NCBI RefSeq assembly: GCF_013122565.1
Contig: NZ_CP053258.1
Direction: 5' to 3' (one strand)
Source of the DNA: Escherichia coli
Lineage (GTDB): Bacteria; Pseudomonadota; Gammaproteobacteria; Enterobacterales; Enterobacteriaceae
DNA: 64,000 bases
Shown here: positions 14,920 to 23,000 of the stretch, one piece after another
Position numbering within the stretch: the first letter of the stretch is position 1
How the letters are laid out: every line of letters starts with the position of its first letter
The notes under the pieces: generated by a model
The model's database searches: none
What the model saw: only the letters and a program-made list of their open reading frames with translations
Told to the model about the DNA's origin: nothing
Position numbers and translations under genes: made by a program

Positions 14920-15570
14920 ATGGCAGTTTCAGCAAAGCACGACGAATTTAATCACTGGTGGGCAACAGAGGGCGACTGGGTTGAAGAGCCTAACTATCGC
15001 CGTAATGGTATGAGCGGGGTGCAATGCGTCGAGCGCAACGGCAAAAAGCTGTATGTAAAGCGCATGACGCATCATCTGTTTCATTCCGTACGTTATCCGT
15101 TCGGCCGACCAACGATTGTCCGTGAGGTTGCGGTAATTAAAGAACTGGAACGGGCCGGTGTCATCGTGCCGAAGATCGTTTTTGGTGAAGCGGTGAAAAT
15201 TGAGGGTGAATGGCGCGCGTTGCTGGTGACTGAAGATATGGCGGGGTTCATCAGCATTGCTGACTGGTATGCCCGGCATGCAGTAACGCCTTATTCTGAC
15301 GAAGTACGGCAAGCCATGTTGAAAGCAGTGGCGCTGGCGTTTAAGAAAATGCATAGCATTAATCGTCAGCATGGCTGTTGTTATGTTCGCCATATCTATG
15401 TGAAAACAGAAGGTAAGGCAGAAGCTGGTTTTCTTGACCTGGAGAAAAGTCGTCGCCGCTTGCGTCGCCATAAAGCGATCAATCATGACTTCCGCCAGCT
15501 GGAAAAATATCTGGAGCCAATTCCCAAAGCGGACTGGGAGCAGGTGAAAGCGTATTACTACGCTATGTAA
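14920..15570 (+). CDS. inaA: Acid-inducible Kdo/WaaP-family protein kinase-like protein
   Basis: 216 aa; synteny next to yfaE-nrdB; the 225-aa minus-strand ORF over the same span is judged antisense artefact. Confidence 0.8.
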   Translation: MAVSAKHDEFNHWWATEGDWVEEPNYRRNGMSGVQCVERNGKKLYVKRMTHHLFHSVRYPFGRPTIVREVAVIKELERAGVIVPKIVFGEAVKIEGEWRALLVTEDMAGFISIADWYARHAVTPYSDEVRQAMLKAVALAFKKMHSINRQHGCCYVRHIYVKTEGKAEAGFLDLEKSRRRLRRHKAINHDFRQLEKYLEPIPKADWEQVKAYYYAM

Positions 15571-15573
15571 TCG

Positions 15574-15620
15574 TTGTAGGCCAGATAAAACGCATAAGCG
15601 CCGCATCTGGCACTACAACC
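15574..15620. repeat. REP palindromic unit
   Basis: gtaggccagataaaacgcataagcgccgcatctggcactac between inaA and yfaE. Confidence 0.6.
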
Positions 15621-15623
15621 AAT

Positions 15624-15878
15624 TCACATCTCGATTTCAATATCGCCTTTTGCCCGGCAACAACAGGGCAAAATTTCCCCCGGCTGAATAAAGGCTAACG
15701 GTTCGGCAATCCAGTCCACCTGACCTGCAACCAGGCGTGTGCGACAGGAGCCGCAGTAACCTTCGCGACACTGGTACTCAACCGCCACATTGTGGGATTC
15801 CAGCGCCGCCAGAAGAGAAGGGTGTTCATCCTGGCACAGCAGTTGTGTGCCAGTGATGCGCAGGGTAACGCGGGCCAT
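15624..15878 (-). CDS. yfaE: 2Fe-2S ferredoxin associated with ribonucleotide reductase
   Basis: 84 aa with CxxxxCxxC...C cluster; start overlaps nrdB stop by 1 nt. Confidence 0.88.
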   Translation of the reverse strand: MARVTLRITGTQLLCQDEHPSLLAALESHNVAVEYQCREGYCGSCRTRLVAGQVDWIAEPLAFIQPGEILPCCCRAKGDIEIEM

Positions 15879-17008
15879 CAGAGCTGGAAGTTACTCAAAT
15901 CGTCGGTGTCCACTTCCGCGTCAATCTGCCCGACCAGATAAGAACTGACTTCCACTTCCTGCGGAGCAACCTGCACGTTATCGGACACCAGCCAGGTGTT
16001 GATCCACGGGATCGGGTTGGAGCGAGTCTGGAACGGCAGATCCAAACCGACCGCCTGCATACGGATATTGGTGATGTACTCAACGTACTGGCAGAGAATG
16101 TCTTTATTCAGACCAATCATCGAACCGTCGCGGAACAGATAATCCGCCCAGTCTTTCTCCTGTTGAGCTGCCTGAACAAACAGGTCATAGCACTCCTGCT
16201 TACACTCTTCGGCAATTTCCGCCATCTCCGGATCATCTGCGCCGCTGCGCAGCAGATTCAGCATATGCTGAGTACCGGTCAGGTGCAGGGCTTCGTCGCG
16301 GGCAATCAGGCGAATAATTTTGGCGTTGCCTTCCATCAGTTCGCGTTCTGCAAAGGCAAAGGAGCAAGCAAAGCTGACGTAGAAACGAATCGCTTCCAGC
16401 GCGTTAACGCTCATCAGGCAGAGATACAGTTTTTTCTTCAGCTCGCGCAGGCTAACGGTTACGGTTTTACCGTTAACGGTGTGGGTGCCTTCGCCCAGAA
16501 GGTGCCAGTAGCTGGTCATTTCGATCAGTTCATCGTAATAGCTGGAGATCCCTTCCGCACGTTTCTGGATCTGCTCGTTGGTGACGATATCGTCAAACAC
16601 AACAGACGGATCGTTAATGATATTACGAATGATATGAGTATAGGAGCGGGAATGAATCGTTTCTGAGAACGCCCAGGTTTCGACCCAGGTTTCCAGTTCC
16701 GGGATCGAGATCAGCGGCAGCAGTGCCACGTTCGGGCTACGACCCTGAATGGAGTCCAGCAGCGTCTGATATTTCAGGTTGCTGATAAAGATGTGTTTTT
16801 CGTGTTCAGGCAGTGCCTGGTAATCGATACGGTCGCGAGAAACGTCAACTTCTTCCGGACGCCAGAAGAAAGAGAGCTGCTTTTCGATCAGCTTTTCGAA
16901 GATGTCATATTTTTGCTGATCGTAGCGAGCCACGTTGACCGGCTGACCAAAAAACATCGGTTCTTTAAGCTGATCATTTTTCGTCTGTGAAAAAGTGGTA
17001 TATGCCAT
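15878..17008 (-). CDS. nrdB: Class Ia ribonucleotide reductase beta subunit
   Basis: 376 aa, R2 family. Confidence 0.95.
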
Positions 17009-17044
17009 GAGTGTGTCCTGTGGTTTTATTACCCCTCACCCTAA

Positions 17045-17067
17045 CCCTCTCCCGCAAGGGGAGAGGG
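17045..17067 (-). other. GC-rich intercistronic hairpin between nrdA and nrdB
   Basis: ccctctccc-gcaa-ggggagaggg, 9-10-bp perfect stem. Confidence 0.5.
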
Positions 17068-17096
17068 GACGGTTTGGTGCAAAGGCTGGGGGATTA

Positions 17097-19382
17097 TCAG
17101 ATCTTACATGCGCCGCTTTCGCAGCCATCGTCCTGGATTGACGGCACCAGATCGTCCTGCGCGTCTTCAGCGCCGTCACGGGTGTTCTGATAATACAGCG
17201 TTTTGACCCCGAATTTGTAGGCGGTGAGCAGGTCTTTCAGCAGTTGCTGCATCGGCACTTTTCCTGACGGGAAGCGTGACGGATCGTAGTTGGTGTTGGC
17301 AGAGATCGACTGATCGATAAATTTCTGCATGATACCCACCAGTTGCAGATAACCATCGTTACCCGGCATTTCCCACAGCAGCTCATAAGCGTCGTGCAGG
17401 TGCTCGTAGTCCGGCACCACCTGGCGCAGAATACCGTCTTTCGACGCTTTGATGCTGACGTAACCGCGCGGCGGTTCAATACCGTTGGTGGCGTTAGAGA
17501 TCTGCGAAGAAGTCTCGGACGGCATCAGGGCAGAAAGCGTGGAGTTACGCAGGCCGTGCGTTTTGATTGATTCACGCAATGCTTCCCAGTCGTAATGCAG
17601 CGGCTCATTAGCGATGGCATCCAGATCTTTCTTATAGGTATCGATCGGCAGGATCCCTTTCGCGTAAGTGGTTTCGTTAAACCACGGGCACGCGCCTTGC
17701 TCTTTCGCCAGCTCGTTAGACGCTTTCAGCAGGTAATACTGAATCGCTTCGAAGGTTTTATGCGTCAGGTTGTTGGCGCTGCCGTCGGAGTAGCGTTTAC
17801 CGTGCTTCGCCAGGTAGTAAGCGAAGTTGATCACACCAATACCCAGCGTACGACGACCCATCGCTCCACGTTTGGCGGCCGGGATCGGGTAATCCTGATA
17901 ATCAAGCAGCGCGTCAAGTGCACGAACCGCCAGAATCGCCAGCTCTTCCAGTTCATCCAGGCTATTAATTGCGCCCAGGTTGAAAGCAGACAGCGTACAC
18001 AGCGCGATTTCACCGTTCTCGTCGTTGACGTCGTTCAGCGGTTTGGTCGGCAGGGCAATTTCCAGGCACAGGTTAGACTGGCGCACTGGCGCGATGGCCG
18101 GATCAAACGGGCTATGGGTATTGCAGTGGTCAACGTTCTGAATATAGATACGACCGGTAGACGCACGTTCCTGCATCATCAGCGAGAACAGCTCAACGGC
18201 TTTCACACGCTGCTTGCGGATGCTGTCGTCTTTCTCATATTTGGTATACAGGCGTTCAAACTCTTCCTGATCGGCGAAGAACGCGTCGTACAGCCCCGGT
18301 ACGTCGGACGGGCTGAACAGGGTGATATCTTCACCTTTCAGCAGGCGGGTATACATCAGTTTGTTGATTTGTACCCCGTAGTCCATATGACGCACGCGGT
18401 TGCCTTCAACCCCACGGTTGTTTTTCAACACCAGCAGGCTTTCCACTTCCAGATGCCACATCGGGTAGAACAGCGTTGCCGCACCGCCGCGCACACCGCC
18501 CTGAGAGCAGGATTTCACCGCTGTCTGGAAATGTTTGTAGAACGGGATACAGCCGGTATGGAACGCTTCGCCACCGCGAATCGGGCTACCCAGCGCACGA
18601 ATACGTCCGGCGTTGATGCCGATCCCGGCACGCTGGGAAACATATTTCACAATCGCGCTGGAGGTGGCGTTGATGGAATCCAGGCTGTCACCGCACTCGA
18701 TCAGTACGCAGGAGCTGAACTGACGAGTCGGGGTACGCACGCCGGACATGATTGGCGTCGGCAGCGAAATTTTAAATGTGGAAACCGCGTCGTAAAAACG
18801 CTTCACATATTGCAGGCGCGTTTCACGCGGGTAGTTCGAGAACAGGCACGCAGCAACCAGAATATAAAGGAACTGGGCGCTCTCATAGATTTCGCCGGTC
18901 ACACGGTTCTGTACCAGATATTTCCCTTCCAGCTGCTTAACGGCAGCATAAGAGAAGGTCATATCACGGTCGTGATCGATAAACGTGTCCATCTGCTTGA
19001 ACTCTTCTTCCGTGTAGTCTTCCAGCAGATGATTATCGTATTTGCCCATCTCGACCATTTTCACCACATGGTCGTACAGCGCAGGCGGCTCAAACTGGCC
19101 GTAGGCTTTTTTACGCAGGTGGAAGATCGCCAGGCGCGCGGCGAGATACTGATAATCCGGCGCATCACGGGAGATCAGGTCTGCGGCAGCCTTGATAATG
19201 GTTTCGTGGATGTCAGAGGTCTTGATACCGTCATAAAACTGAATGTGGGAGCGCAGCTCGACCTGGGAAATCGAAACGTTATGCAGTCCTTCTGCCGCCC
19301 AATCCAGAACGCGATGGATTTTGTCGAGATTGATGCGCTCTGTGCTACCGTCGCGCTTTGTCACCAGCAGATTCTGATTCAT
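17097..19382 (-). CDS. nrdA: Class Ia ribonucleotide reductase alpha subunit
   Basis: 761 aa with N-terminal ATP-cone; the 625-aa plus-strand ORF inside it is antisense artefact. Confidence 0.95.
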   Translation of the reverse strand: MNQNLLVTKRDGSTERINLDKIHRVLDWAAEGLHNVSISQVELRSHIQFYDGIKTSDIHETIIKAAADLISRDAPDYQYLAARLAIFHLRKKAYGQFEPPALYDHVVKMVEMGKYDNHLLEDYTEEEFKQMDTFIDHDRDMTFSYAAVKQLEGKYLVQNRVTGEIYESAQFLYILVAACLFSNYPRETRLQYVKRFYDAVSTFKISLPTPIMSGVRTPTRQFSSCVLIECGDSLDSINATSSAIVKYVSQRAGIGINAGRIRALGSPIRGGEAFHTGCIPFYKHFQTAVKSCSQGGVRGGAATLFYPMWHLEVESLLVLKNNRGVEGNRVRHMDYGVQINKLMYTRLLKGEDITLFSPSDVPGLYDAFFADQEEFERLYTKYEKDDSIRKQRVKAVELFSLMMQERASTGRIYIQNVDHCNTHSPFDPAIAPVRQSNLCLEIALPTKPLNDVNDENGEIALCTLSAFNLGAINSLDELEELAILAVRALDALLDYQDYPIPAAKRGAMGRRTLGIGVINFAYYLAKHGKRYSDGSANNLTHKTFEAIQYYLLKASNELAKEQGACPWFNETTYAKGILPIDTYKKDLDAIANEPLHYDWEALRESIKTHGLRNSTLSALMPSETSSQISNATNGIEPPRGYVSIKASKDGILRQVVPDYEHLHDAYELLWEMPGNDGYLQLVGIMQKFIDQSISANTNYDPSRFPSGKVPMQQLLKDLLTAYKFGVKTLYYQNTRDGAEDAQDDLVPSIQDDGCESGACKI

Positions 19383-19458
19383 GTATGTCGTACCTGTTTT
19401 TGGAATTCTTTCCGCAATAGTTTCATGCAGACTACCTGTAGTACGGGAGGCTGCTTAG

Positions 19459-19506
19459 AACACTATATATAGGGGGTATGTTTGGGATTCACTGCAAGAT
19501 AGTGTG
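19459..19506 (-). promoter_or_regulatory. Two NrdR-box-like palindromes in the nrdAB promoter/leader
   Basis: cactatatatag core at 19461-19472 and cactgcaagatagtgtg at 19490-19506, centres about 31 bp apart. Confidence 0.5.
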
Positions 19507-19535
19507 AAAATGGCCCTCTTGCAAGTGCATAACTT

Positions 19536-19544
19536 TGTGGATAA
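19536..19544 (-). promoter_or_regulatory. DnaA box (TTATCCACA on minus strand)
   Basis: Perfect 9-mer upstream of the nrdA promoter region. Confidence 0.5.
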
Positions 19545-20077
19545 CTCAGGAAGGAAAAAGTGGCTTTCGCGCACCTTAGGTCAGACAAGGTGTCCGGGAA
19601 AGTCAATGGGAAGAGAAAAATTTGTTAAAAATAACTGTTCGGCGATTTCTTGAACGGCAGAATAGGTTGGATAAATTGATATAGATGGTTTATTAATCTT
19701 TTTGCTAATGATTGCAAAAATTGATCTAAGCACGAGTCATCACATAATCTGATGTATCAGTTGTGGTCAATATATAAGCGAATGTAAGCGATTGTTGATG
19801 TCGAAATGGTTGTTTTCTATTCGGTTGTTGTTAAATGCTAAGCCATTTTGTTAATTTACCTTATATTATAAGAAAATTATTGATTACTTTAATTCAGTTT
19901 AAATATAACTGATATCCCTAAAGGTTATTAACTTGAATTATGACGCATTGATATTATTCATCAAATAATAACAAAATAGCCATTGCACCGCGTTGAACAA
20001 TTTACAAAAGAAAGAAAAACCTTATTGCATAATACGTTTAAATACGCCGTCTTATATAAAATGATGGTCAGATTAAT

Positions 20078-23000
20078 ATGCGAGTTATCTTTCTACGCAA
20101 GGAGTATTTATCTTTACTCCCGTCAATGATTGCGTCTCTCTTCTCAGCTAATGGCATTGCGGCAGTCACTGATTCATGCCAGGGATATGATATCAAAGCG
20201 AGTTGCCAGGCCAGCAGGCAAAGCCTTTCAGGCATTACGCAGGACTGGAGTATCGCCGATGGGCAATGGCTGGTTTTTTCGGATATGACCAATAACGCCA
20301 GCGGTGGGGCCGTATTTTTGCAACAAGGAGCGAAATTTACATTATCACCAGAAAACGAAACTGGAATGACTCTGTTTGCCAATAACACCGTTACAGGAGA
20401 ATATAATAACGGCGGGGCCATATTTGCTAAAGAAAACTCAACGCTGAATCTTACTGATGTTATTTTTTCCGGTAACGTCGCAGGCGGCTATGGTGGCGCA
20501 ATCTATTCTTCTGGTACTAATGATACTGGTGCCGTCGATTTAAGTGTCACTAACGCCATGTTTCGCAATAACATCGCTAATGATGGCAAAGGTGGCGCAA
20601 TTTATACCATTAATAATGACGTCTATTTAAGTGATGTTATTTTTGATAACAACCAGGCATATACATCAACAAGTTACAGTGATGGCGATGGCGGGGCAAT
20701 CGATGTTACCGATAATAATAGCGACAGCAAGCATCCTTCAGGTTATACGATAATAAATAACACCGCCTTTACAAATAACACAGCCGAAGGTTATGGCGGG
20801 GCGATATATACCAATAGCGCGACGGCTCCCTATCTTATTGATATTTCTGTTGATGACAGCTACAGCCAGAACGGCGGCGTGTTAGTCGATGAGAACAATA
20901 GCGCAGCAGGCTATGGAGAGGGTCCTTCCACTGCGGCGGGTGGCTTTATGTATCTCGGCTTAAGTGAAGTTACCTTTGATATTGCCGACGGAAAAACGCT
21001 GGTTATCGGCAATACAGAGAATGACGGAGCTGTTGACTCTATTGCTGGTACCGGGTTGATCACCAAAACAGGTTCCGGCGATCTGGTACTTAATGCAGAT
21101 AACAATGACTTTACTGGTGAGATGCAGATTGAAAACGGTGAAGTTATCCTGGGCCGCAGCAACTCACTGATGAATGTCGGAGATAGTCATTGCCAGGACG
21201 ATCCGCAACACTGCTACGGTCTGACGATAGGGAGTATTGATAAGTACCAGAATCAGGCAGAACTAAATGTTGGCTCCACCCAACAAACCTTTGTGCACTC
21301 ATTGACGGGCTTTCAGAATGGCACTTTAAATATCGATGCTGGTGGCAACGTTACTGTTAATCAGGGCAGTTTTGCTGGCACCATCGAAGGTGCTGGTCAG
21401 CTCACCATTGCGCAAAACGGCAGCTACGTGCTGGCAGGGGCGCAGTCAATGGCGCTAACTGGCGATATAGTGGTGGATGATGGCGCGGTGCTTTCGCTGG
21501 AAGGCGACGCGGCAGATCTTGCCGCTCTCCAGGACGATCCGCAGTCGATCGTGTTAAACGGCGGTGTGCTCGATCTCTCTGATTTCTCCACCTGGCAGAG
21601 CGGTACATCATACAACGATGGCCTTGAAGTCAGCGGCAGCAGCGGAACGGTTATCGGCAGTCAGGATGTGGTAGATCTTGCAGGCGGAAACGATATGCAT
21701 ATCGGCGGTGACGGGAAAGATGGCGTCTACGTGGTGGTGGATGCGGGCGACGGGCAGGTCAGCCTGGCAAATGACAATCAATACCTCGGCACAACGCAAA
21801 TTGCTTCCGGTACGCTGATGGTGAGCGACAACACGCAGCTTGGAGATACCCATTATAACCGCCAGGTTATCTTTACTGATAATCAACAAGAAAGCGTGAT
21901 GGAGATTACTGCCAATGTCGATACTCGTTCTACAACGGCTGAGCATGGGCGTGATATTGAAATGCGCGCCGACGGTGAAGTGGCAGTTGATGCGGGGGTA
22001 GACACGCAGTGGGGCGCACTGATGGCTGACAGCAGCAGGCAACATCAGGATGAGGGTAGCACATTGACTAAAACGGGGGCGGGTACACTTGAGCTGACCG
22101 CCAGCGGTACAACGCAGTCAGCGGTACGTGTCGAAGAAGGCTCCCTGAAAGGTGATGTTGCGGATATCTTCCCTTATGCTTCGTCGCTGTGGGTCGGTGA
22201 CGGGGCAACGTTCGTTACTGGCGCGGATCAGGATATTCAGTCAATTGATGCTACTTCCAGCGGCACTATCGACATCAGCGATGGTACGGTTTTGCGCCTG
22301 ACCGGGCAGGATACTTCCGTCGCCCTTAATGCCTCACTGTTTAACGGCGATGGGACGCTGGTGAATATCACCGATGGCGTGACGTTGACAGGTGAGCTTA
22401 ATACCAACCTTGAAACTGACAGCCTGACCTATCTTGCCGACGTGACGGTTAATGGTGATCTGACCAATACGTCCGGTGCGGTTAGCCTGCAAAATGGCGT
22501 CGTTGGCGATACGCTGACGGTAAACGGTGATTACACCGGCGGCGGTACGTTACTGCTCGACAGCGAATTAAACGGCGATGACTCAGCAAGCGACCAGTTG
22601 GTGTTGAACGGTAATACTGCTGGCAATACCACGGTTGTGATTAATCCCATTACAGGGATTGGTGAGCCGACATCTACAGGCATTAAAGTGGTTGATTTCG
22701 CAGCTGATCCCACGCAGTTTCAAAACAATGCGCAGTTCAGTCTGGCAGGCAGTGGCTACGTCAACATGGGAGCGTATGACTACACGCTGGTGGAAGATAA
22801 CAACGACTGGTATCTGCGATCGCAAGAAGTAACGCCGCCATCGCCACCTGATCCAGACCCGACTCCCGATCCTGATCCTTCGCCGGATCCTGATCCAACA
22901 CCCGACCCGGCCCCTACGCCTGCCTACAAGCCAGTGTTGAATGCCAAAGTTGGTGGATATTTTAATAACCTGCGGGCGGCAAATCAGGCGTTTATGATGG

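Follow-up and report, generated by a model that had tools for sequence, protein, structure and literature searches.

Why does a strong G+C-rich hairpin stand between nrdA and nrdB of Escherichia coli? An earlier note on this DNA proposed that the hairpin serves the operon itself. By attenuation, processing or mRNA stabilisation, it could set the ratio of the alpha to the beta subunit of ribonucleotide reductase. Alternatively, the hairpin could belong to a repeat family that is scattered over many sites, and the nrdAB operon could simply be one of these sites. To decide between these answers we turn to the window, the whole stretch of DNA that was analysed (64,000 nt). The genes and signals around the hairpin are, in window coordinates:

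15624..15878, minus strand: an 84-aa ORF, taken as yfaE (ORF map).
15878..17008, minus strand: nrdB, the beta subunit, 376 aa (ORF list; annotation in matching E. coli genomes).
17006-17008, minus strand: the ATG of nrdB.
17007..17141, plus strand: an antisense ORF that starts from the same ATG as K-12 yoaM (K-12 yoaM annotation; translation).
17009..17096, minus strand: the nrdA-nrdB spacer, exactly 88 nt, in the form that we call the BoxC allele below (sequence, ORF list, alignment with K-12, O157 and UTI89).
17016..17019, minus strand: the likely nrdB Shine-Dalgarno sequence AGGA, 7 nt 5' of the ATG and unpaired in the predicted fold.
17097-17099, minus strand: the nrdA stop codon TGA, with an in-frame TAA directly after it.
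17097..19382, minus strand: nrdA, class Ia ribonucleotide reductase alpha, 761 aa (ORF list; nrdA annotation in matching E. coli genomes).

Since nrdA and nrdB both lie on the minus strand, the transcribed sense of the spacer is the minus strand. A 701-nt stretch across the junction is 96-98% identical to nrdA/nrdB of 5425 complete E. coli genomes. In E. coli, the two genes are co-transcribed as nrdAB-yfaE. The sequence ACAGGAC at the nrdB Shine-Dalgarno site is kept across genera in our spacer comparison. In each 8-kb bin of the whole window, the plus strand has a positive GC skew. Hence the plus strand should be the leading strand, and nrdAB-yfaE should be transcribed head-on to replication.

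The hairpin lies at 17045-17067, inside the 88-nt spacer and between the nrdA and nrdB ORFs (17009-17096), just as the earlier note had placed it. On the plus strand it reads CCCTCTCCC GCAAG GGGAGAGGG. The note had described a perfect GC-rich stem of 9-10 bp. Nine pairs stand (7 G-C and 2 A-T), closed by a 5-nt loop and without a mismatch. A tenth pair with a 4-nt loop does not, because the next inner position is G/G on the plus strand and C/C in the mRNA. RNA folding of the spacer, which had been suggested as a check, bears the structure out: the stem forms with a pair probability of ~0.99 and is stable. The core stem by itself has -17.6 kcal/mol and the complete spacer -30.4 kcal/mol.

Folding energy says little about where such a stem comes from. 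Against shuffles, the z-score of the whole-spacer minimum free energy (MFE) is just -1.5, because any G+C-rich shuffle folds well. The z-score is uninformative for a G+C-rich sequence, and therefore we rely on motif shuffles and on family membership. The hairpin motif pattern has no match in 100 dinucleotide shuffles of the window. Chance origin is excluded by the motif and by membership in a multi-copy family, not by the folding energy. An Rfam scan of 15500-20500 with E values up to 10 gives for the spacer a chance-level Antizyme_FSE match alone (16.6 bits against a threshold of 40, E 9.5).

The family in question is BoxC, a G+C-rich element of ~52-56 bp that is scattered in enterobacterial intergenic regions. 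The repeat was named BoxC first, then PIT (potential intrastrand triplex element) and then TM_ECO (Bergler 1992; Bachellier 1990s; Hoyne and Maher 2000/2002; Holder et al. 2015, PMC4666352). Judged by its sequence, the hairpin is the Watson-Crick stem of one BoxC copy of TM_ECO type A. The parts of this copy are:

17032..17083, minus strand: the full BoxC unit, ~52 bp, made of the 5' flank and the 36-nt core (aligned to 10 K-12 copies).
17068-17083, minus strand: the conserved BoxC 5' flank TTTGCACCAAACCGTC (aligned to 10 K-12 copies).
17032-17067, minus strand: the triplex-motif core, 36 nt, identical to TM_ECO entries in the supplement of Holder et al.
17059..17067, minus strand: block 1, the pyrimidine arm CCCTCTCCC, which is the 5' arm in the mRNA (sequence, fold).
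17054..17058, minus strand: loop 1, CTTGC (fold).
17045..17053, minus strand: block 2, the purine arm GGGAGAGGG, which is the 3' arm (sequence, fold).
17042..17044, minus strand: loop 2, TTA, which marks TM_ECO type A (Table 1 of PMC4666352) and is GAC in ~600 E. coli genomes.
17032..17041, minus strand: block 3, GGGTGAGGGG, mirror-symmetric to block 2 (direct reading; Table 1 of PMC4666352).
17083..17092, minus strand: CCCCCAGCCT, which is predicted to pair with block 3 and to supply the 5' strand of the resulting outer helix (MFE, pair probabilities).

In the mRNA sense the 36-nt core is CCCTCTCCC-CTTGC-GGGAGAGGG-TTA-GGGTGAGGGG, or as one string CCCTCTCCCCTTGCGGGAGAGGGTTAGGGTGAGGGG. The part that defines the repeat family is the third block, which the earlier note had missed: TTA-GGGTGAGGGG follows the hairpin in the mRNA sense at 17032-17044. 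Block 1 is the complement of block 2, and block 2 in turn is mirrored by block 3 (CCCTCTCCC / GGGAGAGGG / GGGTGAGGG(G)). By direct reading, all nine of the nine triplets are allowed ones, with seven G.G:C, one T.A:T and one A.A:T. The second loop at 17042-17044 is the TTA of type A and not the CCG-like loop of type B (Table 1 of PMC4666352). The same paper gives the exact 36-mer 12 times in its supplementary list, for example in SE11 and in E24377A at 2526240-2526275. Both strains have it at the nrdA-nrdB locus, and the E24377A entry falls in the 88-nt spacer there. The element at this locus is already catalogued and not new.

The identification could have failed at the third block or at the 5' flank. 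Both do align with other BoxC copies. Among 10 aligned K-12 copies, conservation reaches ~16-20 nt 5' of the core, with a consensus of roughly GCaCGnnCGG-TC. The element is also dispersed. In E. coli genomes, the median number of places matched by a 77-nt query centred on it is at least 15 and the maximum 28, and almost all of these places are chromosomal. No further BoxC copies were found within the 64-kb window, and thus the evidence for its repeat nature comes from other genomes. BoxC was reportedly first described downstream of fabI in K-12. We found nothing there; the K-12 copy sits on the other side of fabI (table of Holder et al., PMC4666352). Other K-12 copies lie between adjacent same-strand genes, at pstA-pstB and yihS-yihR. 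Hence the position between nrdA and nrdB is not unique for BoxC.

What would this element look like in an mRNA? In DNA, block 3 would be the Hoogsteen strand of a purine-motif intrastrand triplex. Purine-motif triplexes do not form in RNA (PMC4666352), and so what remains of BoxC on an mRNA is a hairpin that ends in a G-rich tail. From the nrdA stop to the start of the core stem, the distance is 29 nt. In the predicted RNA fold, block 3 pairs with a C run at 17088-17092. This outer helix would start closer to the nrdA stop, 4 nt behind it; it has a probability of ~0.55 and contains mismatches. The CCCCCAGCCT segment that supplies the C run is specific to the nrdA-nrdB locus: it is missing from the flanks of the K-12 BoxC copies and lies outside the BoxC consensus. 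In Pseudocitrobacter, the left inverted BoxC copy has an outer block that looks similar to the segment. Direct TAAT repeats (17093-17096 and 17028-17031, minus strand) flank the 61 nt that reach from the C run through block 3. These repeats could be a target-site duplication or chance, a 4-nt A+T-rich repeat being weak evidence.

The BoxC allele is not fixed in E. coli. With a query that spans the junction, we find it in 1683 of 5426 complete genomes (31%). It is missing from the other 69%, and four sampled genomes among these carry REPs instead. In a junction alignment of five strains the spacer is conserved at both ends, at the nrdA stop and at the ACAGGACAC...ATG leader, and wholly different in its interior. 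The BoxC unit is found in the window and in strain JNE141411. The REP spacers measure 233 nt in K-12, 226 nt in O157 and 146 nt in UTI89 and hold two to five classical REP palindromes. REL606 and Escherichia albertii have a REP cluster in the nrdA-nrdB spacer too. The REP consensus palindrome (GCCGGATGCGGCG...CGCCTTATCCGGCCTAC), present in the spacers of K-12, O157 and UTI89, was not found in the spacer of the window. According to PMC4666352, TM loci are far more rearranged among E. coli strains than control intergenic sites. The polymorphism of REP and BoxC at this spacer fits such rearrangement hotspots.

The BoxC allele itself comes in two forms. In six aligned carriers the hairpin arms are identical, and the variation consists of a C-to-T change 5' of the stem and of a linker that changes from TTA to GAC. 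No compensatory changes occur among these six carriers. The stem is invariant in them and the spacers of other genera cannot be aligned; hence the covariation test that the note had suggested has no power. About 1077 genomes have the TTA form of the window and ~600 the GAC form, which we saw in E. coli TUM14697, AVS0578 and AR_0081 at the equivalent of window positions 17042-17044. With GAC, the right side becomes complementary to CCGTC on the left, and the stem grows from 9 to 14 bp (CCGTCCCCTCTCCC / GGGAGAGGGGACGG), with -25.5 kcal/mol for the inner 12 bp. The longer stem uses up part of the third block and abolishes the predicted outer helix. Template switching within a quasi-palindrome yields adjacent substitutions that perfect the palindrome. 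The step from TTA to GAC, three adjacent changes that perfect a palindrome, looks like a templated correction of this kind.

The junction also carries a small antisense ORF. K-12 annotates YoaM as an 11-aa small protein antisense to the nrdB start codon. In the window, the ORF from the same ATG is 44 aa long and reads through BoxC; its first five residues alone are common to K-12 YoaM. From these translations, the predicted YoaM peptide is not conserved between spacer alleles. Beyond nrdB, Rfam naRNA4 matches weakly at window positions 15579-15646 (minus strand; 27.2 bits against a gathering score of 59.5, E 0.073), over the final codons of the yfaE ORF and the adjoining 3' sequence. Rfam naRNA4 derives from a REP cluster, and the match is probably a classical REP at the 3' end of the operon. 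Two observations concern plasmids. One match to the BoxC-allele junction lies on a record typed as plasmid. The 111.7-kb E. coli plasmid record NZ_AP027545.1 has a nrdB homologue with ~75% nucleotide identity to the chromosomal gene.

Other Enterobacterales show how general a structure at this junction is. We scanned species-representative genomes with NrdB, obtained 80 loci and located the nrdA stop in 79 of them (L010-L089). The 79 orthologous nrdA-nrdB spacers range from 12 to 322 nt. Nine are short, with 12-23 nt and no room for structure (Photorhabdus, Xenorhabdus, Providencia and one MAG). A strong stem-loop is present in every one of the 70 spacers that measure 30 nt or more. Their median MFE z-score is -3.3, and 56 of the 70 score below -2. 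The first strong stem begins no more than 15 nt from the nrdA stop in at least 53 of the 70, a lower bound because the automated hairpin parser returned the inner hairpin for a few spacers, and the median gap is 9 nt. For L013, L016, L027 and L040, which have long interrupted stems, we read the start positions by eye.

Together with the window, the 71 spacers fall into 32 sequence clusters (the relatives alone into ~31 unrelated ones), and thus the structure recurs on unrelated sequences. By crude regular expressions, which make the classes approximate, ~23 of the 70 spacers are terminator-like, ~12 are REP-like, four contain BoxC and the rest carry other hairpins. Terminator-like spacers, with a stem and a T run, occur in Kosakonia, Cedecea, Buttiauxella, Rahnella and some Erwinia and Pantoea. 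REP-like ones occur in E. albertii, Citrobacter, Klebsiella and relatives. In other genera, BoxC forms inverted pairs that make a long hairpin (two Pseudocitrobacter loci, L013 and L016, and Phytobacter L022) or stands beside a terminator-like hairpin (Cedecea sulfonylureivorans L038). In its right half, the Pseudocitrobacter spacer is a close match to the window, and the leader AAAACCACAGGACAC is part of the aligned stretch. From the C run of the window, with its likeness to the outer block of the left Pseudocitrobacter copy, we tentatively suggest that the E. coli allele may be an inverted BoxC pair that has lost most of its left copy. Partial deletions at paired TM sites have been described by Holder et al. 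(PMC4666352).

Did the hairpin nevertheless evolve at nrdAB as a dedicated, conserved device that fixes the alpha:beta ratio through attenuation, processing or stabilisation? Such a device would predict a stable stem between the two cistrons and some hairpin in nearly all relatives, and both are found. However, the sequence is a dispersed repeat rather than a locus-specific one, most E. coli genomes lack it, the six aligned carriers show no compensatory changes and the hairpins of the relatives are unrelated in sequence. Because REP and BoxC replace each other within the species, a dedicated hairpin is largely refuted, and we consider it very unlikely. The earlier claim about the ratio thus survives in part. 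A published REP precedent at nrdAB and hairpins in 70 of 70 orthologous spacers speak for an influence of structure at this site; what is not supported is the stem of the window as a locus-specific, conserved regulator, in view of its dispersed nature and its absence from 69% of genomes. Attenuation is one of the routes named in the note. An intrinsic terminator or attenuator that reduces read-through into nrdB would have its counterpart in the ~23 of 70 orthologous spacers that the crude rule classes as terminator-like (for example in Kosakonia, Cedecea, Buttiauxella and Rahnella). Yet in the window the stem is followed by UUAGGGUGAGGGG, which contains no U tract, a terminator scan found no terminator-like site in the spacer, and PIT elements showed no terminator activity in vivo in the work of Hoyne and Maher (2002) as summarised in PMC4666352. 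On these grounds we rejected the terminator; its probability is close to nil. Another functional model is the K-12 REP. According to PMC12306157, which cites Liang, Rudd and Deutscher (2015), ribosomes stall at REPs that lie no more than 15 nt from a stop codon, and the transcript for which this is reported is nrdAB. BoxC could be an equivalent that hinders the terminating ribosome and leads to mRNA cleavage, trans-translation and less NrdA relative to NrdB. The K-12 REP begins 9 nt after the stop, the outer helix in the window is predicted to begin at 4 nt, and the stop-proximal stems in at least 53 of 70 orthologous spacers (median gap 9 nt) point the same way. The 2015 study by Liang, Rudd and Deutscher is said to describe mRNA cleavage, trans-translation and relief after UV. 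The core stem of the window, however, lies 29 nt after the stop and so beyond the reported 15-nt range. The outer helix is predicted to form just about half of the time (P ~0.55) and with mismatches, and in the GAC variant (~600 genomes) it is wholly lost. Moreover, ordinary terminators also look like hairpins soon after stop codons. Functional equivalence with the REP therefore seems improbable to us.

Two further readings concern the G-rich strand. As mRNA, GGG-AGA-GGG-TTA-GGG-TGA-GGGG fits the pattern G3N3G3N3G3N3G4 and could form a three-tetrad G-quadruplex that affects nrdB translation; for the G-rich half on its own, ViennaRNA predicts -12.6 kcal/mol. With quadruplexes allowed, however, the MFE structure of the spacer is still the hairpin at -30.4 kcal/mol, and NMR excluded a quadruplex for the DNA oligonucleotide (PMC4666352). 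Predicted energies and published NMR together led us to reject the quadruplex, to which we give hardly any chance. As DNA, the element may act mainly through an intrastrand purine-motif triplex on a displaced strand that promotes rearrangement, with any effect on the RNA incidental. TM_ECO oligonucleotides, other than the exact copy of the window, form intrastrand triplexes in vitro by CD and NMR, and TM loci vary far more than control sites do (PMC4666352). The nrdA-nrdB locus shows just such an intergenic replacement polymorphism, and the three-base change from TTA to GAC perfects the palindrome. Against this, the GC skew suggests that the purine-motif strand, which is the nrd sense strand, would be the leading-strand template, whereas it is the lagging-strand template that becomes exposed as single strand. 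In the summary of PMC4666352, Hoyne and Maher (2002) saw PIT elements block DNA polymerase in vitro. In vivo they found no effects: PIT elements had no promoter activity and left RNA polymerase unaffected. A role that is mainly in the DNA is possible but on the whole rather unlikely, and it is compatible with the explanation that we prefer rather than exclusive of it.

The explanation that we prefer is a BoxC copy that has no dedicated role at nrdAB and acts as a generic intercistronic stem-loop, a barrier that favours the nrdA segment. We hold this to be probable. Transcribed within the nrdAB-yfaE mRNA, the copy is predicted to fold into a stable 9-bp stem-loop. With no U tract behind it, the stem should not terminate transcription. 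The likeliest effect would be generic, as a barrier to 3'-to-5' exonucleases that favours survival of the upstream nrdA segment; we infer this from general knowledge of stem-loops and REPs. A version of the K-12 ribosome stalling may act as well, weaker or absent altogether, given a core at 29 nt and an outer helix at 4 nt from the stop. PMC4666352 reports that the positions of TM_ECO elements show no connection with gene regulation.

As it stands, the element matters little. It is a catalogued repeat that shows no sign of a dedicated role at nrdAB. Its value lies in the pointer that it gives: the nrdA-nrdB junction is a published model of translation control by stop-proximal structure, and natural E. 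coli have three structurally different alleles of it, whose shares of the complete genomes are 69%, about 20% and about 11%. A hairpin in every orthologous spacer of at least 30 nt hints that structure at the nrdA-nrdB site may be selected, and BoxC may then be more than a passenger. In the strongest form of this idea, structure 3' of nrdA is selected across Enterobacterales to tune NrdA against NrdB, and each lineage recruits any palindrome that is available, be it terminator-like, REP or BoxC. We doubt this strong form. If it is true, the E. coli alleles are a natural series: a REP at 9 nt, BoxC with TTA at 29 nt plus a weak outer helix at 4 nt, and BoxC with GAC as a 14-bp stem at 24 nt without the outer helix. 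About a third of E. coli strains would then have a NrdA:NrdB ratio and a stress response of ribonucleotide reductase unlike those of K-12.

How does the BoxC copy compare with known systems? One of them is the REP/BIME cluster of K-12. Bounded by the same junctions, it takes the place that BoxC has in the window; it too is a dispersed palindromic repeat and gives a stable RNA stem-loop just 3' of nrdA. In contrast to BoxC, it belongs to an unrelated sequence family, has two to five elements in 145-233 nt instead of one in 88 nt, and its stem starts 9 nt after the nrdA stop rather than at 29 nt, where the BoxC core begins. Beyond this locus, Higgins, Newbury and co-workers reportedly found that intercistronic REP stem-loops stabilise mRNA at malE-malF and hisJ-hisQ. 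Those REPs resemble the BoxC of the window in being stable stem-loops in a polycistronic mRNA, 3' of the upstream cistron. The hairpins of Kosakonia, Cedecea, Buttiauxella, Rahnella and Erwinia are likewise G+C-rich and lie a few nt from the nrdA stop. They are followed by a T run, whereas the hairpin of the window is not. Within its own family, the copy differs from the commonest K-12 TM_ECO form ('A mm', CCCTCGCCCC, with one mismatched triplet) by its perfect stem CCCTCTCCC, and like a minority of BoxC copies it lies inside an operon. With the BoxC family as a whole it shares the three-block core, the TTA linker, the 5' flank, the intergenic site and the dispersed multi-copy distribution, and in nothing essential does it differ.
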